Shown: piece after piece, positions 9,249 to 53,417 of the stretch
Position numbering within the stretch: position 1 is the stretch's first letter
How the letters are laid out: each line of letters opens with the position of its first letter
Assembly (NCBI GenBank): GCA_964642835.1
Contig: CAZXQA010000001.1
Span: forward strand, 132,314 to 196,313
Direction of reading: 5' to 3'
DNA from: an uncultured Candidatus Saccharibacteria bacterium
Lineage (GTDB): Bacteria > Patescibacteriota > Minisyncoccia > Phycocordibacterales > Zambryskibacteraceae
Length of the DNA stretch: 64,000 bases
The notes under the pieces: model-generated
What the model was told of the DNA's origin: nothing
Database searches by the model: none
The model's input: the letters and a program-made list of their open reading frames with translations, nothing else
Position numbers and translations under genes: made by a program

Positions 9249-9321
9249 TGCCCGATCGTCTAATGGTAGGACAGAGGCCTTTGAAGCCTTTAATTGGGGT
9301 TCGAATCCCTGTCGGGCAGCA
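9249..9321 (+). tRNA. tRNA-Gln (anticodon UUG)
   Basis: Cloverleaf folded by hand: acceptor TGCCCGA/TCGGGCA with U1-A72 and G73 (Gln identity elements), D-arm GTCT/GGAC, anticodon stem GAGGC/GCCTT with loop CTTTGAA, T-arm TGGGG-TTCGAAT-CCCTG. The 3' CCA is not encoded (gene ends GCA then A). Confidence 0.8.
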
Positions 9322-30372: not shown

Positions 30373-30768
30373 ATGAATAAAATCGCTTTATCAATTATTA
30401 CTATCGGACTCATTGTTGGAATTGGTGTTATTTTTGTAGGATCGAAGGATGGCGACAAAACTGCATTAACACAGTCTATGCAAAATGTTGAAGTAAAAGA
30501 TGGGATTCAATACATAACTATCGACGCTAAAGGTGGATATTCTCCAAAACTCTCTAATGCAAAGGCTGACATTCCTACCAAGTTGATCGTGAAAACAAAC
30601 GGAACTTATGACTGCTCTTCTTCACTTGTAATCAAGTCATTGGGATATCAAAAGATATTAGCGCAAACTGGAGAAGAGATGATTGATGTTGGAACACCTA
30701 AAGCAGGAGAACCACTTCAAGGAGTTTGTGGTATGGGGATGTATAGCTTCGTAGTTAATTTTAGCTAA
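30373..30768 (+). CDS. membrane-anchored cupredoxin-like copper-binding protein
   Basis: 131 aa. N-terminal TM, C-terminal C…GVCGMGMYSF Cys/Met cluster as in Cupredoxin_1-type proteins of cop operons. Confidence 0.45.
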   Translation: MNKIALSIITIGLIVGIGVIFVGSKDGDKTALTQSMQNVEVKDGIQYITIDAKGGYSPKLSNAKADIPTKLIVKTNGTYDCSSSLVIKSLGYQKILAQTGEEMIDVGTPKAGEPLQGVCGMGMYSFVVNFS

Positions 30769-32050
30769 TGCATATATTTTTTTCTTTTAGCAGTATTTTG
30801 CTTTTAAAACAGGTAAGCAGTTCTCGTTTCTCTTCAACTGTTCCATCTTTCAGTATGAATTTAGCGTAATCTCTAATATCCACGTCTTTAACTTGTATTT
30901 GCTGTTTAATACCTAAGATAGATTGCTGGAACTTCTTTATGCGCTCGACCTCATATTTTATTTTCTCTCTCATGCCTATTTCATTAAGATTTATATGAGT
31001 AAGGATCTTCACAAACTGTTGTATTAGGTCAGTTTCCTTGATATAACCACATTTGCAATCCTTGTCTTTAGATTTCGTGCATCCATAATAAACATGTCTG
31101 TTCACTGATCCGTCTTTCAGCTTCTTAAACTTTTCATCAGCACATATTCCAGAGCCACACAAAGCGCATGTCATTATTTTGGTGAACGCAAATTCTTTTG
31201 GTTCCTGTACCCGTAATATCTGACTTTTAATTTGCTGTTGAACTTGGTCAAATAACTCTTTTGAAATTATTGCTTCATGAACTCCTTTGTACCAAAGCCC
31301 ACTCTTTCTAGGATATTCAAATGAACCGTAATAGAAGTCGTTTTGTAAAAGAAGATAGATGTTGCTCAAAGTCAGACCCTTGTTTCCGTTAGGTGTTTTA
31401 AAGTTCAACTCGAACTTGAGCCAGTTATAAATTTTGCGACCGCTCCATTTCTCATAGGCAACTTTCTCAAACATCTTCCTTATGATTGGCCCTCGTTCTG
31501 GATCTATGTAAACATGACCTTTGCGGTCGACTCGCTTTTCATTGAGATACCCCATCGGAGCGGGGGCGGGCCATAAACCCATCTCGCAACGAGTCCTCAG
31601 CCCACGCTTCACGTTGATGCTCTTGTTGTCATTCTCAAGCTTTGCCTGAGAACAGAGAATCATTAATAGGAACTTCTCGCTTGGAGTATTCGTAAACGTC
31701 TGACCATAAGTGCGTATCTGAACCAGAAGTTTCTGATCCATTAAGTCCACTAGAGAACCTAGATCTCCCGCATTTCTACTCAACCTATCTGGATGCCAAA
31801 CAATGATTCCATTAAATCGCTGTCTTCTTAAGTCTTCCAAGATTTCTTTGAAGACTGGTCTTTGTCCTGAATCTTTTGCAGAGTGCGCCTCTCTTCGTAT
31901 GTCTATAACATCAAGATTTTCTCTTTCGGCTATGGCTAGCATTTCCTTAACTTGGGATTCGATTGAAAGGGCTTGCTTCTCGTCTTGTTCAGTGGATTTA
32001 CGAGCATAGAGAACGTACTTAACTCTTGGGGCTGGTTGTGTGGTTTCCAT
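30761..32050 (-). CDS. large serine recombinase (integrase/resolvase family)
   Basis: 429 aa. N-terminal resolvase catalytic domain (YVLYARKSTEQDEKQALSIESQ, catalytic Ser), recombinase domain, C-terminal Cys-rich zinc ribbon (CALCG…CTKSKDKDCKC). Confidence 0.9.
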   Translation of the reverse strand: METTQPAPRVKYVLYARKSTEQDEKQALSIESQVKEMLAIAERENLDVIDIRREAHSAKDSGQRPVFKEILEDLRRQRFNGIIVWHPDRLSRNAGDLGSLVDLMDQKLLVQIRTYGQTFTNTPSEKFLLMILCSQAKLENDNKSINVKRGLRTRCEMGLWPAPAPMGYLNEKRVDRKGHVYIDPERGPIIRKMFEKVAYEKWSGRKIYNWLKFELNFKTPNGNKGLTLSNIYLLLQNDFYYGSFEYPRKSGLWYKGVHEAIISKELFDQVQQQIKSQILRVQEPKEFAFTKIMTCALCGSGICADEKFKKLKDGSVNRHVYYGCTKSKDKDCKCGYIKETDLIQQFVKILTHINLNEIGMREKIKYEVERIKKFQQSILGIKQQIQVKDVDIRDYAKFILKDGTVEEKRELLTCFKSKILLKEKNICIS

Positions 32051-32365: not shown

Positions 32366-32668
32366 ATGGAATTTTGGATCTGGGCACTACTAATTATCGC
32401 TCTGTACTTTGCGCCAACAATTACTGCTTACGATAAGAAAAAGAAGAATACTGGGGCAATATTTGCCCTCAACTTCTTTCTTGGTTGGACTTTGGTAGGT
32501 TGGGTGGTCGCGTTAGTTTGGGCTACTACCGTTGAGAAAGAAGAAAGGGTAGAGGTTGTAAGGGGATCATCAAGTATTGATGATTTACACAAGTTAGCAG
32601 AACTAAAAGAGAAAGGACTTATCAGCGAAGAAGAGTTCAACAAAAAGAAGCAACAAGTGCTTGGTTAG
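32366..32668 (+). CDS. superinfection immunity protein (Imm_superinfect) fused to SHOCT domain
   Basis: 100 aa. YFAPTITAYDKKKKNTGAIFALNFFLGWTLVGWVVALVWA matches the phage superinfection-immunity family. C-terminal SIDDLHKLAELKEKGLISEEEFNKKK is a SHOCT motif. Confidence 0.75.
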   Translation: MEFWIWALLIIALYFAPTITAYDKKKKNTGAIFALNFFLGWTLVGWVVALVWATTVEKEERVEVVRGSSSIDDLHKLAELKEKGLISEEEFNKKKQQVLG

Positions 32669-33216
32669 TTTTTCTGGGGCTTGTTTCTTTTCTCCTCATA
32701 TTCTTTCTTCCATTCCTCAAAGAGTTCTCTTGCCCTCTTCTCTCTATCGTGATCCATAACCTTTTTCCACTTGTCCATCCATTTTTGTGCCTGATTTGCA
32801 GCTTCTTCGTTTCTTATGCGATTTTTTTCTGTGATCGTATATTTTATTTCCTCTTCAATCTGGCGTTTCTTTACTCCTTCCAAGGTGGAGCGGAAGTGAG
32901 AGATCAGATCATCAGAATCAACCTTAAAGACGTATGGCCTTCTGAAATCAGGGTGCCTGTGACTCAACCAATACTTTGTGTACATAGGATCCTTTTTCTT
33001 GATGCCATCAAGAACATTACTTACGGCCACATCACTCACTAACCCAGTGCCAAGAGACAAGGCCTCGTTAACCTGGGAGAGAAATTCTTTATCTTCTTTC
33101 ATCCAGCGATAGAAGGTATTTCTTGAGACACCCACCTTTTCGCAAGCTCCCAGAATAAGGCCTGTTTTCTCAAGCTCCTCTATAAGTCTATTCACTAGTG
33201 CCTTTGTCTTTTTCAT
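32665..33216 (-). CDS. HTH-domain protein, possible phage terminase small subunit
   Basis: 183 aa. N-terminal ACEKVGVSRNTFYRWMKEDKEF homeodomain-like HTH, highly charged C-terminal coiled region. No large terminase subunit nearby. Confidence 0.35.
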   Translation of the reverse strand: MKKTKALVNRLIEELEKTGLILGACEKVGVSRNTFYRWMKEDKEFLSQVNEALSLGTGLVSDVAVSNVLDGIKKKDPMYTKYWLSHRHPDFRRPYVFKVDSDDLISHFRSTLEGVKKRQIEEEIKYTITEKNRIRNEEAANQAQKWMDKWKKVMDHDREKRARELFEEWKKEYEEKRNKPQKN

Positions 33217-34474
33217 AGAGGGCTTTTTCTCCAGTTAATTTTTCCCATCTCCGCACAATCAGGTCGCAGAACTTTGGTTCCAGTTCACAACCATATACTC
33301 GTCGTTTAAGGATCTCTCCCGCAATCAAAGTGCTGCCAGATCCCAAGAAGCTGTCTAAGATGATGTCATTAGGCCTTGTACAGCGTTTAATAGCCTTCTC
33401 ATGGAGTTCTGGTGGCTTTGAGGTGGCGTGTTCGTATTCTTTGGCACCAAGGCGTTTAACTGCCCAGATATCGCCGATTTCATCGAGCATGTCGTTGCCG
33501 CTGGTTACTTCCTTGTTCATGACCTCATTGAGATCTTGTCTCAAATCAGAAAGGAATGGAGATCCGCGAGTGCCGTAAGTGCACGGTTCATAGCATTTGT
33601 TGAAAGCGGAAGTTGGGGTGGGGTTGTGTCCGTTCTTAATCCAGAGACAAACTCTCTTGTTTGCGATACCAAGCTCCTGATACAGGGTTTGCATGAGCCA
33701 GATATAACGCTGGTCAGACCAGTAGAAGATATGAAGATCGTTCTTAGAGACTGACAAGGCATTCTCAAGAGACTGCCTGATGAGATTTTTATAATCCCCC
33801 TCTTTTTGATTGTCGTTTACTTTGCCTCCGTAGCCTTTCTTCTTGCTTATGCCTTTGTCGTAGTCGATGCCGATGTTGTAGATCGGATCGGAGTAGATCA
33901 TGGATGCTTTATCTTTCCCTAAGAGTTTCTTAAGGTTTTCTTTATCAGTTGAATCTCCACAGAGAACTCGGTGCTTACCGAGTATGATAAGGTCGCCTAA
34001 CTTTGTTGTAGGCTCTTTAATATTCTTAAGTTCCTTCTCAACGTCGAAGTCTTCTTCTGCAACTTCCTTTTCTCTATCGAAGATGTTGGCGAGCTCAAGT
34101 CCATCAAAGCCTGCGAATTCGAGGGTATCGAAATCGAAGGATTTAAGGAGTTCAAAGTCCCAATCACCGCCGAGCTTGTTTGAGGCAATCAGGTATTCTT
34201 TCGATTCTTCCACTGTGAGCTTGCGATTGGGGACACGGACGTCGATTAATTCTTCTCCACGCCCAAGAAGCTGAAGAGCTTTAATGCGCTGATGTCCGGC
34301 AAGGATAGTGCCATCAGTATCAACCGCAGGAATCTCTACAAGATTGTATTTCTTGAGACTTCTTTTAAGATCCGACATCTGTTTGTCGGTAATTGTGCGA
34401 GGATTTACCTCTTGGGGAACAAGGTCGTTAACACGGTAACAATCTGTACGCCATTCTAACTTTAAGTTTTTCAT
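33188..34474 (-). CDS. ParB-like nuclease domain fused to DNA N6-adenine/N4-cytosine methyltransferase (beta class)
   Basis: Start taken at MKNLKLEW (ATG 34474). ParB/Srx motif LAGHQRIKAL. MTase motif IV SDPIYNIG (DPPY-like) precedes motif I ILDSFLGSGSTLIAGE (beta-class order). Typical phage/plasmid orphan methylase. Confidence 0.85.
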   Translation of the reverse strand: MKNLKLEWRTDCYRVNDLVPQEVNPRTITDKQMSDLKRSLKKYNLVEIPAVDTDGTILAGHQRIKALQLLGRGEELIDVRVPNRKLTVEESKEYLIASNKLGGDWDFELLKSFDFDTLEFAGFDGLELANIFDREKEVAEEDFDVEKELKNIKEPTTKLGDLIILGKHRVLCGDSTDKENLKKLLGKDKASMIYSDPIYNIGIDYDKGISKKKGYGGKVNDNQKEGDYKNLIRQSLENALSVSKNDLHIFYWSDQRYIWLMQTLYQELGIANKRVCLWIKNGHNPTPTSAFNKCYEPCTYGTRGSPFLSDLRQDLNEVMNKEVTSGNDMLDEIGDIWAVKRLGAKEYEHATSKPPELHEKAIKRCTRPNDIILDSFLGSGSTLIAGEILKRRVYGCELEPKFCDLIVRRWEKLTGEKALYEKDKGTSE

Positions 34475-34823
34475 GACTTTAAAACCTATTTTGTTAATGC
34501 GTACAAACAAAAACACCAACTTTTTGAATTGGTGTTTTTGCGGGATAACGAAAGCAATAACAACAACCAAAAAGGCTGTAACTATTACTTCCGTCAAAAA
34601 GAATCGTACCTAGACGCACTTTCGTGCCGGTAATTAACGTTCTACGGCTTTTGACTTATAACCGAATCGATGCCGGAGCAGACCCACTTTCCGTGTAAGG
34701 GTCTCAAAGAAGACAATTGATGTTTTGTGAATGTACTACTGTAATTATAAGACATGTATTTACTAGTTAGTAACTAGAGTTGTTGATAAAGAAGGTGTAT
34801 GCTAATCCCAAGAAAAACTTAAT

Positions 34824-36500
34824 ATGTCAATAAAGATTGTCCACGAAGAAATAAAACGTTTCTTGGAAAATGACGAACCAGAGGTTCTTTGTCTTAAGGG
34901 AAAGTGGGGCGTAGGTAAGACATATGCTTGGAATTACTTTCTTAAGGAAGCTGCAAGGAAAAAAGGTTTGGGTATGAATAAGTACGCGTATGTTTCTCTT
35001 TTTGGGCTTAAAAGTTTAGAAGAAGTTAAGTATGCATTATTTGAATCAACCGTTGCTGATGAGGCAATAGTAGATGGGCCAAGTGCAACAACCTTAGATA
35101 AGGGATTCACTTGGGTGAAAAAGAACTTGAGAAAGGGAGCTGGCTTGGTTAGTCAGAATCCTCTGGTTAAATCTTATATAGGGGAAACAGAGAAAAGCCT
35201 TTTCTTTCTAGTTAGAAATCAAGTTATTTGTATTGATGACTTAGAGCGAGCTAGTGAAGGTCTCGATATTAAAGATGTGTTTGGCCTAATTTCTTATTTA
35301 AAAGAGCAAAGGAGATGTAAGGTTGCCTTGCTTCTTAATGAAGAGAAGATTGCAGATAAAAGTGTTTATGATGAATTACTAGAAAAAGTGGTAGACACCA
35401 AGCTTGATTTCAGCCCAACTCCCTCAGAAGCATCTGATATTGTATTTCCATCACCTTCGGACAATCAAAAGTTGATACATGATAACTGCGTTAAATTAGG
35501 TATTACGAATATCAGAATCATCAAAAAGATTGAAAGGATTATTAAAAGATTTGAGGAAATTTTTGGAAAGAGTAGTTTACTAATGCCCCAAGTCGTTCGT
35601 TCAGGAACATTATTTGCATGGTCTATATATCAACCAAAAGAAGCTCCTCCTTTAGAATTTCTTGGTGATTTTGGGAGATTGAACAATTTGGGTCTGGAAA
35701 CAGACAAAGTTCCTGAATCTGAAAAGGAATGGCAACAGCTAATGAGAGAATATGGCCACTTTCAAATTGATGATTTTGACAAACAGATACTAGAAACCAT
35801 TAAAAGTGGGTACTTTAACAAAGATGTCTTACTGATTGCCGGGAAAAAACAGCTTGATGAATTCGATGAGGCGCAGGTAAAAAATGAATTTAGCCAAGCT
35901 TGGGACTTGTATCACAATTCTTTCGATCGCAACGAAAAAGAGGTGCTGGATGCAATTTATTCTTCTGCTAAGAAAGCTGCAAAGTTTATTGAGCCGTCAA
36001 ATATGGATGCAACAGTCGTATTTCTTAGAGAATTCGATAGAAAAGAGGAAGCTGAAGATTTGATTAAAACCTTCATCGAAGCTAGAGGAACTGACAAGGA
36101 AGTGGTTGATTTTGAAAACTCTTTCTTTTCAAGAGAGCTGAAAGATCAAAACTTCGCCACAGCATTAAAAAATAATGCAGAATCATTTAAGGATTCTCGT
36201 AGTCCTGCTCAGGTTCTAGAAGATGTGTATTTAAAAAGAGGTTGGAATCCAGAAGATGTACATCTTATTAACACTTTAACGAGTGCTGATTTCTATAACC
36301 TTTTTAAAAAAGCTAAAGGCATTGAAATGCATAGAATGGTGAAGATGGCTTTGGATTTTGGGAAATATACTGATGCCTCTGTAGAAATGAAAAGCATTGC
36401 CGAAAAAGCAATGCAGGCTTTGGAGAAAATTGGAAAAGAGACTCGGCTTAATGCCAAACGAGTGTCGCTTCGTGGAATTAAGGTTACCCCTGAAAAATGA
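34824..36500 (+). CDS. KAP-family P-loop NTPase
   Basis: 558 aa. LKGKWGVGKTYAWNYF Walker A and VICIDDLERA Walker B with KAP-type spacing, long helical C-terminal region. Confidence 0.7.
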   Translation: MSIKIVHEEIKRFLENDEPEVLCLKGKWGVGKTYAWNYFLKEAARKKGLGMNKYAYVSLFGLKSLEEVKYALFESTVADEAIVDGPSATTLDKGFTWVKKNLRKGAGLVSQNPLVKSYIGETEKSLFFLVRNQVICIDDLERASEGLDIKDVFGLISYLKEQRRCKVALLLNEEKIADKSVYDELLEKVVDTKLDFSPTPSEASDIVFPSPSDNQKLIHDNCVKLGITNIRIIKKIERIIKRFEEIFGKSSLLMPQVVRSGTLFAWSIYQPKEAPPLEFLGDFGRLNNLGLETDKVPESEKEWQQLMREYGHFQIDDFDKQILETIKSGYFNKDVLLIAGKKQLDEFDEAQVKNEFSQAWDLYHNSFDRNEKEVLDAIYSSAKKAAKFIEPSNMDATVVFLREFDRKEEAEDLIKTFIEARGTDKEVVDFENSFFSRELKDQNFATALKNNAESFKDSRSPAQVLEDVYLKRGWNPEDVHLINTLTSADFYNLFKKAKGIEMHRMVKMALDFGKYTDASVEMKSIAEKAMQALEKIGKETRLNAKRVSLRGIKVTPEK

Positions 36501-36512
36501 TATAATTTAACT

Positions 36513-36761
36513 ATGGCAAAAAAGGGAAATTATCATATAGTTCCTGACTCAAATAACGGCTGGGCGGTAAAAAGAGAAGGTGCTGAAAAAGTTAGTGCTT
36601 TCGCCGCTACTCAGAGAGGCGCAGAGAAGTTGGCTAAAAACTTTTCTGCCAATCATGGTGGAGGTGAGGTAGTGATACATCGTAGAGATGGAAAGATCCG
36701 AGATAAGGATACTGTTTATCCTGCCTCAGACCCATTTCCTCCAAGAGATCGACGACACTAA
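36513..36761 (+). CDS. DUF2188 domain protein
   Basis: 82 aa. YHIVPDSNNGWAVKREGAEKVSAFAATQRGAEKLAKNFS…EVVIHRRDGKIRDKDTVY matches the DUF2188 consensus across the whole length. Confidence 0.7.
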   Translation: MAKKGNYHIVPDSNNGWAVKREGAEKVSAFAATQRGAEKLAKNFSANHGGGEVVIHRRDGKIRDKDTVYPASDPFPPRDRRH

Positions 36762-36772
36762 TTCTAGTTTAG

Positions 36773-37660
36773 ATGAAAAAAGCTCTTGGTTTTGTTCCTG
36801 AATTAAAGTTTGGTAGAAATATAAATCGCAGGATAAAACTTACTGATAACATCTATCTGTTGCCAGATGAGAGCACTTTGGCTGTCGATTTTCGTTCTGA
36901 GATAGAGAAGAAGGGATATAAGCTTTCAGATGGCTCAGTTCTCTATTTTCAAGGGAGCTTAAAAGCAGATGGTACTTTGTATGAAATATTTCAAGGCTAT
37001 GCTCTTGCTCTAACTTTTTTCAACCCAAAAGGTCAAGCAACATGCAGAGCCTTTAAAGATTTAGATACTGAGGAAGGTATTCAGCTATTTATTGATGAAT
37101 ACGACAAATTTGGTTATGAGAAAGAAGATGTAATCACCCTTAAACCTTCCAAGGTAAAAGATGTTAAGTCTATTTATTCCAAAGTAGAGAAGCAATTGGA
37201 GATTAAAGATTTTAACCCCTTGAGAAACTCGCTAGAGTTCTTTATTTTGTTTTTAAATGAGAGAAAAATTAGAACTCGCTTATTGTATCTAAGTATTTGC
37301 TTAGAAAGTGTCTTGTTGGAAGGGGCGACTGAAGGTCTTTCTTATAAGCTGAGTATGCGTTGTGCAAATCTTTTAAATGCTTTCTATAAAGGTGTAAATA
37401 TGGAATCCGTTTTCGGTGAGATCATGAGCGGGTATGAACTTCGCAGTAAGATTATTCATGGAGATGATTACAACAAAGCATCGGAAAAAATCATAAGAAG
37501 AAGAGGTGGCAATTCTACTGAGCTGGATCATGTTATAAATCTTGAAGCGGTAGTGAAGGACGTGCTTTCAGTAATTTTCTCAAATCAGAGCTTGTATGAT
37601 TCTTCAATAGAAAGTGGATTGGGTAAAATGATTGATCAAAAATATATATTAGATTGTTAG
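36773..37660 (+). CDS. hypothetical protein with C-terminal HEPN-like motif (Rx4H) - candidate Abi/RNase component
   Basis: 295 aa. All-helical C-terminal half with YELRSKIIHGDDY (R-x4-H). Confidence 0.4.
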   Translation: MKKALGFVPELKFGRNINRRIKLTDNIYLLPDESTLAVDFRSEIEKKGYKLSDGSVLYFQGSLKADGTLYEIFQGYALALTFFNPKGQATCRAFKDLDTEEGIQLFIDEYDKFGYEKEDVITLKPSKVKDVKSIYSKVEKQLEIKDFNPLRNSLEFFILFLNERKIRTRLLYLSICLESVLLEGATEGLSYKLSMRCANLLNAFYKGVNMESVFGEIMSGYELRSKIIHGDDYNKASEKIIRRRGGNSTELDHVINLEAVVKDVLSVIFSNQSLYDSSIESGLGKMIDQKYILDC

Positions 37661-37695: not shown

Positions 37696-38211
37696 ATGAT
37701 CAAAAAAATATTACTCATTAGCTTCCTGGTTTTATCTCCAGCTTTTGCTTTTGCCGCAAGCGGAGCATGTTCAGGTCATGGAGGGGTAAGTTGCAGTGCG
37801 GGAGCAGATTCGGACGGAAGTGTGATTTGTAATGACGGTTGGAGGAATAGTAGTGTCTCATATTCTTCAATGGTTATGTGTGGCGCACCTTCAAGTTCAA
37901 AACCTAAGGAAATTGTTCCTGTGGTTAAGCCTGAACCAAGGCCAGAGCCAATAACTGTTCCAACTCCTAAGCAAGAAATCCCGAAGCCTAAAGAGATCCC
38001 AGTTGTTCAGCCTCAAGTTTCAAAACCCGAGGTTGTTAAGCCGGTTGAGAAGAAAGTAACTCCAACACAAGTGGTTCAACCTAAAGCCACTACAACCCCT
38101 GTAAAAACAGTGGAATCAAAGCCTATTCAGGAAGAGGTAAAACCTGTTGAGGTGCCTGCACAGGTTAAAAAGAGAGGGATTATCTCAAGATTCTTTAGCT
38201 TCTTTTTCTAA
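37696..38211 (+). CDS. secreted Cys-/Pro-rich repeat protein
   Basis: Signal peptide, Cys-rich head (GACSGHGGVSCSAGADSDGSVICNDGW), then PKPEP/PVVKP repeats. Confidence 0.45.
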   Translation: MIKKILLISFLVLSPAFAFAASGACSGHGGVSCSAGADSDGSVICNDGWRNSSVSYSSMVMCGAPSSSKPKEIVPVVKPEPRPEPITVPTPKQEIPKPKEIPVVQPQVSKPEVVKPVEKKVTPTQVVQPKATTTPVKTVESKPIQEEVKPVEVPAQVKKRGIISRFFSFFF

Positions 38212-38241: not shown

Positions 38242-38874
38242 ATGAAGTCAACTTTTCGTCCGTTAACTGAATTGGCAGAAAGTAAGGAACGTCTGAATGC
38301 TCTGCTCTTCCTAACTCTTGGTTCAAAGTATTTGAATTTGGTGCACAACGTTTTAGGAGAGAGTATAAAGTCTGGTAACCCTCATATGATTGTTTCAGAT
38401 GGCGATTCATCTTGGGAAGAGTACTACCAGAAAACCAAATGGAGTGATTTCTTTATTATTGAGCCCACCTTATTTTGTCTTTATCACGGACTCGAGCTCA
38501 CCATTAAGGGCCTTACTCTTTTGGTAAAAGAAGAGGATATGGAGCCAGTTCATAGTCTTTCTAAACTTTATAACAAGCTACTGGCTTTAGAAGAAGTTCC
38601 TAACGATATAAAAGATGTTATAGGTAAATACATTAGTGCTAGTGAAAAAGAAAACTTCATTTCCAGCTTTCTACTAGAAAATGGCAAGGACATTGATGGC
38701 CTCTACGAATCTTTAAGGTACCCAGCGGATAAAAATCTTCAGAGTTTGAATAGCTACTTTCAGCTACATTATAAGGAGGCTCAGGCACTAGAGGAGTACC
38801 AATCAATCCTTCAAGACATAAGGAGCTTGCAATCCTCAGCTACTAAATTTTACAAAGCATATTCCCAGGAATAA
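38242..38874 (+). CDS. hypothetical protein nested inside repeat copy 5 (candidate cargo / mobility protein)
   Basis: 210 aa, helical, no recognisable motifs. Sits exactly where the cargo-free copy (55154-55305) has TTTTGAAGCGCTCGAGACCC. Here TTTT-ATGAAG…(gene)…TAATATGCGCTCGAGACCC. Confidence 0.5.
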   Translation: MKSTFRPLTELAESKERLNALLFLTLGSKYLNLVHNVLGESIKSGNPHMIVSDGDSSWEEYYQKTKWSDFFIIEPTLFCLYHGLELTIKGLTLLVKEEDMEPVHSLSKLYNKLLALEEVPNDIKDVIGKYISASEKENFISSFLLENGKDIDGLYESLRYPADKNLQSLNSYFQLHYKEAQALEEYQSILQDIRSLQSSATKFYKAYSQE

Positions 38875-38877
38875 TAT

Positions 38878-39062
38878 GCGCTCGAGACCCGTCGTTTTAG
38901 ATGCTAAAATTAAGCTAATTCCGTCAAGCGGGGCTTAACCGTTTACGGTTCGAGCTCGAGTCGGCCAGCCAACTCGTGCGATGCTCGAGACGCGTCTGCA
39001 CATCGTTTTCTTAGCTCTGCATAGAGCGCACCCTCTTGGGACTCGAACTTTGGTATACTTTT
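38878..39062 (+). repeat. tRNA-Gln-derived intergenic repeat, copy 5 (GCTCGAGACCCGTCGTTTTAGATGCTAAAATTAAGCTAATTCCGTCAAGC form + promoter module)
   Basis: …CGGTTCGAGCTCGAGTCGGCCAGCCAACTCGTGCGATGCTCGAGACGCGTCTGCACATCGTTTTCTTAGCTCTGCATAGAGCGCACCCTCTTGGGACTCGAACTTTGGTATACT. Confidence 0.7.
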
Positions 39063-39065
39063 GTT

Positions 39066-39986
39066 ATGGAAGCTAAAACTGTCGTCACGAGCTACACAGA
39101 ACCCGATCTAGACGGGTATTCTGGTGCCGTTGCCTATGCCGAATTTTTGAATAAAACAGGCACTCCAGCGATCGTTAGGCTTTTTGGTAAACCTCATATT
39201 GAAGCCACACATTTGGTAGAAAAGTATGGTCTCAAGGTTGAACAAGATGATCAGGCACCTTTAGAGAAAGTTGTATTGGTTGATGCGAGTGAAATAAAGA
39301 ATCTAAATCCACTCATTGATTTTAAAAATGTGGTTGAGGTTATTGATCACCGCAAAATGAATGATGCTCCGATGTTTGTAAACGCAAAGATTCTGATAGA
39401 GTTCGTAGGTGCCGCAGCCACTCTTATTGCCGAGAAATTTCACCAAAGCAATATCGAAATTTCAAAGGCATCAGCTATCTTGCTCTACGGGGCTATTGTC
39501 TCAAATACCCTTAATTTTAAAGCCAAGGTTACTACGGAGCGGGATCAAATCATGGCTAAGTGGCTCAATGAACAGCTCGGGTTTACCAAAGAATTTACTG
39601 ATGATATGTTCCGTGCCAAGTCGGATGTAACAGGAGAAAAGCTTATGGAGCGAATTAATGCAGATTTCGCCATCTTCCCGTTTGAAAAAAAGAAATTAGG
39701 TTTTGGTCAGCTTGAGATCACGGATGTTAAGTCTTTAATAGATACTCGAAAAGATGAGTTATTCTCCATATTAAAAACACTTAAAACAAATGATAGCCTC
39801 GATACAGTTTTCATCTCCTTTATTGATCTCAGTGACGGATTCAATGCCTTTGTTACCGAAGACATCGAATTGCAATCTATTTTGAGCGAAATACTAGATA
39901 TTAAATTTGAAGATGGGGTAGCTTTCAGAGATGGATATATTATGCGTAAAGAATTAGCACCTTTTCTTAAAGAGAAGTTTTCATAA
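39066..39986 (+). CDS. DHH/DHHA2-family phosphoesterase (family-II inorganic pyrophosphatase PpaC-like, divergent active site)
   Basis: Start at MEAKTV (ATG 39066, 7 nt after TGGTATACT). TEPDLDGYSGAVAYAEFLNK resembles PpaC NPDTDTICSAIAYA. DHH motif reads IDHRK. C-terminal DHHA2-like GFGQLEITD. Confidence 0.7.
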   Translation: MEAKTVVTSYTEPDLDGYSGAVAYAEFLNKTGTPAIVRLFGKPHIEATHLVEKYGLKVEQDDQAPLEKVVLVDASEIKNLNPLIDFKNVVEVIDHRKMNDAPMFVNAKILIEFVGAAATLIAEKFHQSNIEISKASAILLYGAIVSNTLNFKAKVTTERDQIMAKWLNEQLGFTKEFTDDMFRAKSDVTGEKLMERINADFAIFPFEKKKLGFGQLEITDVKSLIDTRKDELFSILKTLKTNDSLDTVFISFIDLSDGFNAFVTEDIELQSILSEILDIKFEDGVAFRDGYIMRKELAPFLKEKFS

Positions 39987-39992
39987 ATATCC

Positions 39993-40508
39993 ATGCTACT
40001 TCTTAACCAAGAAAAGTATCTAGAAACAGTTCCTGAAGACAAGATTGCTAAAGTGGTTCCCTTTGATCCTGCAACTCAAACAACTGCCCAGGAAATTATC
40101 TCTGAAATCCGAGAAGTTCTTCCAGGAGCAGAAGTTTTCTATATAGGCTCTTCAGCTTTAGGGATAGCAGGAGAAAACGATATAGATATGACAGTTATGG
40201 CCTATGATCGCTTTGATGAATACATGCAAGTTATGGGAAAAATGTATGGTGAGCCAGTTCATTCAAACCCAAGTGATGGATACATAAAATGGGAACTAGA
40301 GAGGAACGGTTTTCCAGTGGAACTTCATTTGAATGATGTAATTTCCCCCAACTTCCAAGAACAACTTGATACTCAAAAGATACTTGAAGGAAGTGAAAGT
40401 TTAAGGCAAGAATATGAACGAATAAAGTTTGAGGCCAATGGTTTGTCTTGGAAGGAATATTTGAGAAGAAAATATGAGTTTTGGAATAGAATTTTAGGAA
40501 TAAATTAA
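39993..40508 (+). CDS. GrpB/UPF0157-family nucleotidyltransferase-fold protein
   Basis: 171 aa. VFYIGSSALGIAGENDIDMTV matches the GrpB core (…HIGSTSVPGL.AKP.IDI…). Confidence 0.7.
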   Translation: MLLLNQEKYLETVPEDKIAKVVPFDPATQTTAQEIISEIREVLPGAEVFYIGSSALGIAGENDIDMTVMAYDRFDEYMQVMGKMYGEPVHSNPSDGYIKWELERNGFPVELHLNDVISPNFQEQLDTQKILEGSESLRQEYERIKFEANGLSWKEYLRRKYEFWNRILGIN

Positions 40509-40512
40509 ATTC

Positions 40513-41073
40513 ATGCTAATTGAGTCACAGGATACCATTGAGGCTTTTAATAAAGGAAAGGAATTTCTTCTTACTCTCCCTGGTTCTCTTGACCCAGAGA
40601 TATTAAAAGAAAGTCCCATAATTTTTGTTTTCAGTGATTTATCTGGGGATTCATCAATCCCATATTTTGATGGTAGTAAACTCTCGGCTAATTTCGATTA
40701 TCCAGAAAGTATTCAAAATCAGTCAGTGATTGAAGAATTTAGGCACTACGAAAAGTTATTAGTTCCTAAGATTCAAGAGATAGTCGGATATTTAAAAGAA
40801 AACCCTTTCTCTAAAAGAGCAATAATCAATATCTGGGACGATGCTCAAAGAGCTTTAAATAATAAAGCCGAATGTTTAGTCTATTTAAATTTTAGAAAAT
40901 CAAACAACGGTCTTGACATGAATGTACACATGAGGGCCAACGACGCGGAAAATAAGATATTGTTGAATTTTCATATATTTGCGGCAGTACACAGATTTGT
41001 ATCAAGGGAACTGGGAGAAAGGGTGGGAGTGTATACTCACTTTGTTGATTCCTATCATATTTATAGAGGATGA
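40513..41073 (+). CDS. truncated thymidylate-synthase-superfamily protein (TS/dNMP-hydroxymethylase-like catalytic core, 186 aa)
   Basis: KRAIINIW…AECLVYLNF…LDMNVHMRANDA…NFHIFAAV…HFVDSYHIY aligns block-for-block with E. coli ThyA RRIIVSAWNP…PCHAFFQFYV…LSCQLYQRSCDV…NIASYALL…GDTHLYSNH (catalytic Cys, Arg and Asp retained). The protein ends about 55 residues before a normal TS C-terminus. Confidence 0.55.
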   Translation: MLIESQDTIEAFNKGKEFLLTLPGSLDPEILKESPIIFVFSDLSGDSSIPYFDGSKLSANFDYPESIQNQSVIEEFRHYEKLLVPKIQEIVGYLKENPFSKRAIINIWDDAQRALNNKAECLVYLNFRKSNNGLDMNVHMRANDAENKILLNFHIFAAVHRFVSRELGERVGVYTHFVDSYHIYRG

Positions 41074-41795
41074 ACCATTCAAAAGAGTATTTTTCCATAC
41101 AGTTAGAATTTGCTAAAAAAGTTTCTGAATTAGCAGGAATAAGTCTAAGTGATGCTATCTTAAATTACACTACCTGTTATAAGAAATTTGAAATCGAAGG
41201 ATGGGATTTTAACCCAAATCATCCAGTCTGGTCTGACTTCTCTAAACAGCTAGAAAGCTCTAGTGATCCTTTGTCTACCGTATACGACTTCTATCTAGAA
41301 AGGCAGAAAACTCAAACTAAGGACGCGCCATCTCCTTTTGGCTGTTTTTCCTACGAATATGATAGCGAAGAGAAACATATTCAAATTCACTTTAAACAGA
41401 AAGATAAATCTGGGATTAGTCCATTAAGTTCAGAAAGAATTGAAGTACGCAAAGATGAGTTAAGGAGAATGTTTTCTGAAATTAGGACTAAATACCCAGA
41501 AGCTAAAACGGTAGGAGGATTTTCTTGGCTCTACAACATTGGGGCATATAGAAGGCTTTTCCCGTCCTTATATACCGAAAGTGCTAAAGTCAATCAAACA
41601 TGGTTTAAGTCGTATGCCCTATGGGGTCAGTTCGTAAACTCTAAGAAAGAATTGAAGCAAGACATGTCCCGCTCTTTTCTATCCTGCGTAGAAAGTAAAA
41701 ATACCGTTGAAGAACTAAGAAAATGTTTCCCATATTTAGTTTTAGAACCTGAGGTGAATATCGACGCTTTTTATAATTTTTACAATATAAAATAA
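41070..41795 (+). CDS. hypothetical protein (4-nt ATGA overlap with upstream gene)
   Basis: 241 aa, no recognisable motifs. Translationally coupled inside the 39066-42351 operon. Confidence 0.45.
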   Translation: MNHSKEYFSIQLEFAKKVSELAGISLSDAILNYTTCYKKFEIEGWDFNPNHPVWSDFSKQLESSSDPLSTVYDFYLERQKTQTKDAPSPFGCFSYEYDSEEKHIQIHFKQKDKSGISPLSSERIEVRKDELRRMFSEIRTKYPEAKTVGGFSWLYNIGAYRRLFPSLYTESAKVNQTWFKSYALWGQFVNSKKELKQDMSRSFLSCVESKNTVEELRKCFPYLVLEPEVNIDAFYNFYNIK

Positions 41796-41799
41796 TAAT

Positions 41800-42351
41800 A
41801 TGAACGAACGAGGCGTACTGAATCTGATAAGGAATGATAAATGGATGATGAATGTCTTGGAGACTGCTGAGAAACTTCGACTGCCTCAATGGGTTATTGG
41901 GGCGGGGTTCGTGCGTAATAAAGTCTGGAACCATCTAAGTGGAAAAAATGATGCACAACACTCAACCGACATAGATCTCGTTTACTTTGACCCTATTGAT
42001 ATTGAAGAATCTACCGAAAAAGCGTTAGAGAAAAAGTTGAAAGAGGTGTTGAAGCTAGATTGGTCTGTTAAAAATCAGGCTAGGATGCACCTAGTAAATG
42101 GAGATAGTCCTTATCTTTCTACAGAAGACGCATTGGCACATTGGCCTGAAACAGCTACGGCGATCGGAGTAAATAAGGAGGGAGAAAACCTTCGTCTCGT
42201 TAAACCGTATGGCATCGAAGATTTAGTAAATATGATTGTCAGATCATCTTTAAAATTCAAAGGAGGCCTAGAAGGAGTTAAAATTCGAGCAGCAAAGAAG
42301 AGATGGTTAGAGATGTGGCCAGAGTTAGTAATTCAAAATGAAGATAATTAA
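41800..42351 (+). CDS. nucleotidyltransferase family protein (NTP_transf_6/DUF925-like)
   Basis: 183 aa. WVIGAGFVRNKVWN…STDIDLVYFD matches the DUF925 nucleotidyltransferase signature. Confidence 0.6.
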   Translation: MNERGVLNLIRNDKWMMNVLETAEKLRLPQWVIGAGFVRNKVWNHLSGKNDAQHSTDIDLVYFDPIDIEESTEKALEKKLKEVLKLDWSVKNQARMHLVNGDSPYLSTEDALAHWPETATAIGVNKEGENLRLVKPYGIEDLVNMIVRSSLKFKGGLEGVKIRAAKKRWLEMWPELVIQNEDN

Positions 42352-53344: not shown

Positions 53345-53417
53345 TGCCCGATCGTCTAATGGTAGGACGCCCGCCTCTGGAGCGGTTAATTGGGGTTCGA
53401 GTCCCTGTCGGGCAGCA
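53345..53417 (+). tRNA. tRNA-Gln (anticodon CUG)
   Basis: Identical to the 9249 tRNA except the anticodon arm (CCCGC-CTCTGGA-GCGGT). U1-A72, G73. Same 6-nt upstream and 10-nt downstream flanks as the other copy. Confidence 0.8.

Follow-up and report, generated by a model that had tools for sequence, protein, structure and literature searches.

The locus analysed here raises the question of whether three closely spaced genes constitute one defence system or a chance neighbourhood. It lies in a stretch of 64,000 nucleotides (nt) from an uncultured Candidatus Saccharibacteria bacterium, called the window in the following. In this window, gene A (34824-36500, + strand, 558 amino acids (aa)) encodes a KAP NTPase, gene B (36513-36761, +, 82 aa) a DUF2188 protein, and gene C (36773-37660, +, 295 aa) a HEPN protein. 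An earlier note on this DNA had read the trio as one candidate anti-phage or abortive-infection module inside a prophage-like island. Its account of the genes, their common direction and their neighbours stood and the HEPN assignment gained support, whereas the single module and the prophage-like character were not supported, and the spacers, given as 12 nt each, turned out to be 12 and 11 nt long. The quoted motifs are present (GKWGVGKTY at residues 26-34 and ICIDDLE at residues 135-141 of A, LRSKIIHGDD at residues 223-232 of C), and the neighbours are indeed a ParB-N6/N4 methylase, a signal-peptide protein, a serine recombinase and an Imm_superinfect+SHOCT gene. All three are genuine genes and not chance open reading frames (ORFs), as A has at least 945 homologues (E<=1e-10), B matches DUF2188, and C has 32 full-length homologues.

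The best explanation, which we hold with moderate confidence, is that an integrative element with a large serine recombinase, residing in a genome of the Candidate Phyla Radiation (CPR), carries two cargo modules, and that the second of these is a HEPN RNase silenced by DUF2188.

Strict pairing of DUF2188 with C and independence of the KAP gene

The genomic contexts of C homologues were taken from assemblies, GTDB genomes and JGI metagenomes and were screened by tblastn. This yielded a complete pair at 15 distinct loci and, in addition, one truncated contig; one of the loci, L001, has the same sequence as the window. The pair is rare, and the sources that carry a name are mostly CPR metagenome-assembled genomes (MAGs), with one Gammaproteobacteria MAG. 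A DUF2188 gene was found directly upstream of the C gene in 15 out of 15 distinct loci, with gaps ranging from -17 to +11 nt. In contrast, KAP adjoins the pair only in L001, the window copy, and is missing from the other 14 distinct C loci, which speaks against the trio as a single module. The two families also differ in size, with at least 945 matches for KAP and 32 for C. KAP occurs by itself in L024-L026 as well as in Burkholderia phages, and neither DUF2188 nor C was detected near the three closest KAP homologues on long contigs or near the phage copies.

The slot upstream of the pair, which is occupied by KAP in the window, is filled differently elsewhere. At three loci (L002, 8697-9731; L020, 6589-7689; L035, 4647-5720) it holds a member of a Zn-ribbon family of 344-366 aa with several CxxC motifs and no Pfam match, the L002 and L020 members being 29% identical. 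In L017 (4087-6871), a LexA-like gene (S24 peptidase) is combined with a second, divergent DUF2188 gene, SMODS and S_4TM in an arrangement resembling a cyclic oligonucleotide-based antiphage signalling system (CBASS), and in L033 (2252-5718) a LexA-like gene and a second DUF2188 gene are followed by other genes. The L017 element uses DUF2188 twice, with different effectors. Further occupants are a SEC-C-motif protein (L036), a type I S-subunit-like gene (L037) and a Y1 transposase (L019), and the slot is empty in L004 and L007.

The genes downstream of C are likewise unrelated across the loci, except for a secreted protein that is common to the window and L036. In the window, it is encoded at 37696-38211 (+) and comprises 171 aa, with a signal peptide followed by a Cys-rich and then a Pro/Val/Lys-rich part; its homologue after C in L036 (6969-7478) is 44% identical, and no other locus has one.

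Each module was also found as the only cargo of a very small element. L006 (9575-12218) consists of tRNA-Gln, DUF2188, C and a recombinase, and L007 (9512-11706) has the same order next to tRNA-Ser. L024 (4645-7802) is composed of a recombinase (64% identical to that of the window), a KAP gene (60% identical) that begins 18 nt after the recombinase, and tRNA-Gln. A GGDEF-like gene upstream in L006 was considered as a partner of the pair and was ruled out, as the tRNA-Gln gene lies in between. Because the same recombinase family carries either module as sole cargo and the window contains both, the trio is a juxtaposition and not a system. It represents two independent cargo modules, KAP alone and the DUF2188-C pair.

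The sequence in front of the pair is in accordance with this division. An extended -10 promoter-like box, TGaTATAAT (36498..36506, +), shares bases with the KAP stop codon and is separated from the DUF2188 ATG by 6 nt. The pattern TGnTAnAAT occurs at the identical position, -12..-7 from the ATG, in L006, L019, L030, L031 and L033, thus in six loci including the window, although the upstream genes are unrelated, and near-matches are located at -13 in L002 and L008. A generic promoter and terminator scan of the region did not rise above the shuffled expectation, and the promoter assignment therefore rests on cross-locus conservation. This conservation indicates that the pair would be transcribed from a promoter of its own, as an mRNA with little or no leader.

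A system of three components, in which the NTPase serves as sensor or switch and the HEPN protein is the effector, would fit the co-directional genes with their short spacers, and KAP NTPase domains have been reported to regulate linked antiphage regions (PMC13552941). Nevertheless, it is largely refuted by the synteny and we regard it as very improbable: KAP is missing from the other C loci, the closest KAP homologues examined have no pair nearby, each module is a sole cargo elsewhere, the upstream slot is varied or empty, and the conserved promoter box belongs to the pair itself.

The HEPN-like domain of C

The C protein has two domains. Its N-terminal alpha/beta domain (36773..37141, +, residues 1-123) has the invariant residues P9, E10, T68, E71, Y76, R92 and D111, and the HEPN-type helical domain (37145..37660, +, residues 125-295) contains the Rx4H motif R224...H229, encoded at nt 37442-37459. 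Homologues of C form 32 clusters among 5.8 billion; they are full-length, 292-305 aa long, and 45-76% identical. The R224-x4-H229 motif is invariant in 28 members of the family, as are S225 and G230 in the context Y-x-LRS-x-I-I/V-HG, E178/S179 ('CLES'), K192/R196 and E250/H253. No match to C was found in Pfam, NCBIfam, PHROGs or PADLOC, and searches of the PDB by phmmer and with the family profile retrieved nothing meaningful.

An AlphaFold2 model of C had a pLDDT of 92.7 and a pTM of 0.91, and again comprised an alpha/beta domain and a helical domain. The best structural matches of the helical domain were minimal HepT toxins (8xdj, 5yep, 7ae2), and none of the Foldseek matches against the PDB was significant. 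For the N-terminal domain, no convincing known fold and no ApeA-like match were obtained, and hhalign revealed no similarity to the DUF1883-TIR protein of a Gordonia plasmid.

A profile search of 1.84 billion representatives yielded 9 sequences at E<1e-30 and 2,824 at E<1e-3, most of which match only the helical half and have other N-terminal regions. In an alignment of 141 distant relatives with about 20% identity, R224 and H229 were the sole invariant columns, and E178, R196, S225 and G230 were conserved in at least 90%. Searches of these 141 relatives against Pfam and PADLOC gave only sporadic, sub-threshold matches to HEPN_Apea or RiboL-PSP, HEPN_Apea being found weakly in 1 of 141 (0.0029). 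The profile of the 141 members matches ApeA (9hxd and related entries) with an E value of 1.5e-4, and its 'YdlRSkiVHG' is aligned with 'YRTRNLIVH' of ApeA, which places R224/H229 on R502/H507. The strict C family profile alone does not reach ApeA, and the link between C and ApeA is therefore transitive.

The HEPN assignment made in the earlier note is thus backed by the invariant R224/H229 and by the ApeA profile alignment. C is predicted to carry an ApeA-like HEPN domain, and the structural evidence for this is moderate, not overwhelming. The superfamily to which this domain belongs numbers about 2,800 cluster representatives and is modelled by neither Pfam nor PADLOC. A helical domain that is a non-catalytic HEPN-like or an unrelated four-helix bundle, with a non-toxic role for the pair, is hard to reconcile with two residues that stay invariant at such low identity and fall on the catalytic residues of ApeA, and we give this reading very little credence.

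DUF2188 as the presumed control subunit

Gene B is an unequivocal member of its family, as it matches Pfam DUF2188 (PF09954) over the whole profile (1-62/62) with 72.9 bits (cutoff 22, E 2.4e-20) and PADLOC PDC-S16 with an E value of 7.3e-23. In the alignment of pair-associated DUF2188 proteins, the C-terminal tail DKDT..P..DPFPP.D is invariant, and even the paralogue at the head of the SMODS cassette has the DKDT..DPxPPxD tail unchanged. DUF2188 is uncharacterised but has been linked to defence (bioRxiv 10.1101/2022.04.27.489752; 10.64898/2025.12.03.692087). Its fold has been reported to resemble the N-terminal domain of HicB, a 'minimal antitoxin' (PMC13621843). This likeness was not reproduced here by sequence profile; neither the profile of the DUF2188 partners nor a single-sequence search matched HicB or 5JN6 in the PDB. 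A recognisable DNA-binding domain was not found in DUF2188. In an M. abscessus prophage, DUF2188 is fused to an annotated antitoxin, and a BrnT toxin is encoded adjacently.

In the explanation that we favour, the second module is an obligate bicistron of DUF2188 followed by C, the latter combining a novel N-terminal alpha/beta domain with the ApeA-like HEPN domain. The HEPN domains would dimerise and thereby form a composite Rx4H RNase site (R224/H229). DUF2188, expressed together with C, would act as the control subunit and silence the RNase. Once unleashed by a presumed trigger, the RNase would cut cellular RNA (if it resembles ApeA, in the anticodon loops of tRNA) and arrest growth, and this would either result in abortive infection or stabilise the element post-segregationally. 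The pair has the organisation of a type II toxin-antitoxin (TA) module, in that a small gene is tightly coupled to a larger toxin-like gene and both are kept together on mobile DNA. The strict adjacency, the order with the small gene first, the reported HicB-like fold and the antitoxin fusion on the BrnT side point to DUF2188 as a putative direct antitoxin.

Several observations weigh against this explanation. DUF2188 is better conserved than C, with a mean pairwise identity of 72.9% compared to 52.9%, and this holds for 96% of the pairs. Furthermore, DUF2188 proteins with 39-50% identity and the same DPxPPxD tail precede several unrelated effectors: they head a DUF1883-TIR operon on the Gordonia plasmid, the SMODS+S_4TM cassette of L017, a nucleotidyltransferase+SLATT operon in Rhodococcus, and a Vsr-Dcm-GIY-YIG operon, i.e. 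a restriction-modification (RM) operon, in Methylocaldum. Such conservation together with multiple unrelated partners would be unusual for a protein antitoxin dedicated to one partner. Full-length but distant relatives of C, about 325 aa long, occur singly and lack DUF2188, and this type of HEPN protein can hence be self-controlled. Finally, the spacing between KAP and the pair is only 12 nt, and read-through co-transcription may occur in the window.

These operons and the higher conservation of DUF2188 would be accounted for if it were a generic controller or sensor at the head of operons for many unrelated defence effectors, and not a cognate antitoxin, a reading that we consider possible but clearly the less probable one. 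It would also agree with L033, in which C is 72% identical to that of the window and DUF2188 only 68%, while DUF2188 reaches 87-90% at loci with a similar C, and with the solitary C relatives. In ApeA, a small ligand in the pocket between N-terminal and HEPN domains is the activator, and the N-terminal domain of C is rich in invariant polar residues. However, the adjacency at every one of the 15 loci and the tight coupling fit a stoichiometric partner, the antitoxin fusion and the reported HicB-like fold (PMC13621843) favour direct neutralisation, and a DNA-binding domain was not recognised.

An extension of the generic role, put forward tentatively, is that DUF2188 might be a universal, portable control subunit that gates unrelated immune effectors (HEPN RNases, TIR, CD-NTase/SMODS, restriction enzymes) either in response to an infection cue common to them or through a post-transcriptional mechanism that they share. 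If this were true, the DUF2188-HEPN bicistron of about 1.2 kb carried by the CPR recombinase elements would represent it in a minimal form amenable to experiments. The N-terminal domain of C might, alternatively or in addition, be a new ligand sensor comparable to the ApeA pocket.

The pair could also serve primarily as an addiction module, which would stabilise the recombinase element by post-segregational killing and would not act against phages. Small-then-larger gene order, as found in the pair, is typical of type II TA modules, and the recombinase elements of about 2.6 kb at a tRNA gene in L006 and L007 have no cargo other than the pair. In larger elements, in contrast, RM, CBASS-like and KAP genes accompany the pair, PADLOC lists both DUF2188 and the KAP family as defence-island candidates, and ApeA, the nearest characterised HEPN relative, is an abortive-infection defence. 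We therefore judge a primary addiction role to be rather unlikely, but addiction and anti-phage roles are compatible and not mutually exclusive.

The KAP module, the carrying element and known systems

The first module, the KAP-type P-loop NTPase (34824..36500, +), consists of an NTPase domain at about residues 1-250 and about 300 aa of unassigned function. The match to Pfam KAP_NTPase (PF07693) is marginal (21.2 bits, cutoff 20, E 1.9e-4, residues 18-177), and the same Pfam family is precomputed for many close homologues of A. PADLOC PDC-S49 matches with an E value of 3e-26 (residues 24-380 on profile positions 29-392/624), leaving the C-terminal third uncovered, and phrog_4740 of the PHROGs collection matches over the full length (1.9e-64). 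The family is large: at E<=1e-10 it counts at least 945 clusters, each about 560 aa long, and it is found in Patescibacteria, Alphaproteobacteria and Bacteroidota and also in Burkholderia phages.

The Walker A motif G26xWGxGKT33 (residues 26-33, nt 34899-34922, +) and the Walker B motif C136xDDxER142 (residues 136-142, nt 35229-35249, +) are well preserved. In an alignment of 36 sequences, G26, G29, G31, K32, T33, D138, D139 and R142 are invariant, and E141 is conserved in at least 90%. Because the Walker motifs are intact across these sequences, A is not a degenerate NTPase. Transmembrane (TM) helices in or near the NTPase domain are, reportedly since Aravind et al. in 2004, a hallmark of many KAP members. 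No TM segment was found in A, where Kyte-Doolittle values over 19-residue windows peak at 0.84, with none above 1.6. A is a soluble, active-looking KAP NTPase of the PDC-S49/phrog_4740 family, encoded as a single-gene module, and probably acts alone. KAP NTPases with C-terminal regions of unassigned function have been shown by experiment to be single-gene antiphage defences and are found beside serine recombinases (PMC13552941, PLoS Biology 2026). The KAP gene is a putative member of this recently validated kind of defence.

The large serine recombinase of the element (30761..32050, -) has the Pfam domains Resolvase, Recombinase and Zn_ribbon_recom, and homologues that are 47-75% identical to it lie next to the pair or to KAP in L006, L007, L017, L019 and L024. 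Just beyond its 5' end lies a LOOT RNA (Rfam RF03000; 32184..32301, +; 75.7 bits, gathering threshold 46.4). The same arrangement in L017 (1200-1322, +, 88.8 bits) suggests that this orphan small RNA motif is a backbone feature of the recombinase element family and not part of the modules. It is followed by the Imm_superinfect+SHOCT gene (32366-32668, Pfam) and by the gene for the ParB-N/N6_N4 DNA methyltransferase (33188..34474, -; Pfam, PADLOC MTase_II 1.9e-63, phrog_498). The latter is divergent from the cargo genes, has homologues in L002, L017, L020 and L033, and is a backbone gene of the element. A longer, TTG-started ORF for this methylase, reaching 34597, probably extends too far, as the gene was called at 428 aa in L001. 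The divergent intergenic region of about 350 nt between methylase and KAP contains a perfect 7+1+7 palindrome (34763-34777, CTAGTTA-G-TAACTAG), a possible operator.

The surroundings are AT-rich, as the earlier note had stated, with a GC content of 36-41% at the locus versus about 55% at the ends of the window. The low-GC stretch (about 17-42.5 kb) also contains genes for methionyl-tRNA synthetase, glycosyltransferases and a P-type ATPase, and hence it is not one island. The methionyl-tRNA synthetase is most similar, at 70-74% identity, to named proteins of Candidatus Kaiserbacteria and Parcubacteria, which places the host in the CPR (Patescibacteria). The prophage-like label could not be upheld: among the ORFs scanned at 30-42 kb, no virion structural, packaging or lysis genes were seen beyond a weak terS-like helix-turn-helix protein, and no relatives of C were found in IMG/VR. 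A search of plasmids for C also gave no match. When the surroundings of the element were searched for att-like repeats, direct or inverted, the matches were short and at chance level. The two tRNA-Gln genes of the window (9249-9320 and 53345-53416; TTG, CTG) do not adjoin the element, while the mini-elements in L006 and L024 do adjoin tRNA-Gln.

Further genes are situated downstream. The second gene past C (38242-38874, +) encodes a helical protein of 210 aa with a sub-threshold match to Pfam HEPN (E 0.015); it occurs only in L001 and beside no other C homologue, and may be a second, unrelated HEPN-like cargo. The low-GC region 39036-42351 encodes a DHH/DHHA2 phosphoesterase and several small proteins without a family match, and a protein of 186 aa (40513-41073, +) matches only the C-terminal part of thymidylate synthase.

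The class of mechanism proposed is an expected one: HEPN RNases with a small partner are familiar, KAP NTPases have been validated, and current ideas stand. The significance lies, first, in a HEPN superfamily with a distant link to ApeA that defence annotators miss. Second, the pair is the first clean two-gene context for DUF2188 (PDC-S16), a widespread defence-island protein, which makes its role directly testable. Third, mini integrative elements are documented for CPR bacteria, consisting of a large serine recombinase and one module as sole cargo, in a group whose defence and TA systems are poorly charted.

Among characterised systems, ApeA is a HEPN tRNA anticodon nuclease with R502A as catalytic mutant, and it is activated by deoxydinucleotides in a pocket between the N-terminal and the HEPN domains (bioRxiv 10.64898/2026.01.26.701840). 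C shares with ApeA the HEPN signature (hydrophobic-x-ES in an early helix and Y-x-x-R-[SN]-x-I-V-H), a non-catalytic N-terminal region fused to the HEPN domain, and a mobile or defence context. However, ApeA is a single gene product of about 590 aa with N-terminal and Mid domains (about 300 aa) and a split HEPN domain, and it forms deca- or dodecamers, whereas C has 295 aa, an unrelated N-terminal domain of 123 aa, a constant DUF2188 neighbour, and no match to Pfam HEPN_Apea (PF18739) at E<=0.1.

HepT/MntA is, like the pair, a two-gene cassette with an Rx4-6H RNase toxin, the RNase of the pair being predicted. Its MNT nucleotidyltransferase AMPylates the toxin. The partner in the pair is instead DUF2188, and C has an additional N-terminal domain. 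HicAB also is a small two-gene RNase module, and the N-terminal domain of HicB, to which DUF2188 has been reported to be similar, neutralises its RNase toxin on its own (PMC13621843). In contrast to HicAB, the putative toxin of the pair is HEPN and not HicA, and DUF2188 lacks the DNA-binding C-terminal domain of HicB.

KAP antiphage proteins, i.e. EF_KAP and others, PifA and QatA, combine, like A, a KAP NTPase with a region of unassigned function. A differs from EF_KAP in the absence of TM helices (for those of EF_KAP, see PMC13552941), and the recombinase near A is large, whereas those near validated KAP proteins are small. Although PDC-S49 and PDC-S16 matched A and B, respectively, both are single-gene, unvalidated PADLOC candidates, and no mention of either was found in the literature. 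PADLOC contains neither a model for C nor a DUF2188+HEPN system, and the bicistron of DUF2188 and a HEPN protein with this N-terminal domain is likewise absent from the papers found to mention DUF2188. In summary, the pair is best described as a variant of HEPN toxin or abortive-infection modules, whose catalytic domain is nearest to ApeA and whose organisation is nearest to TA modules.

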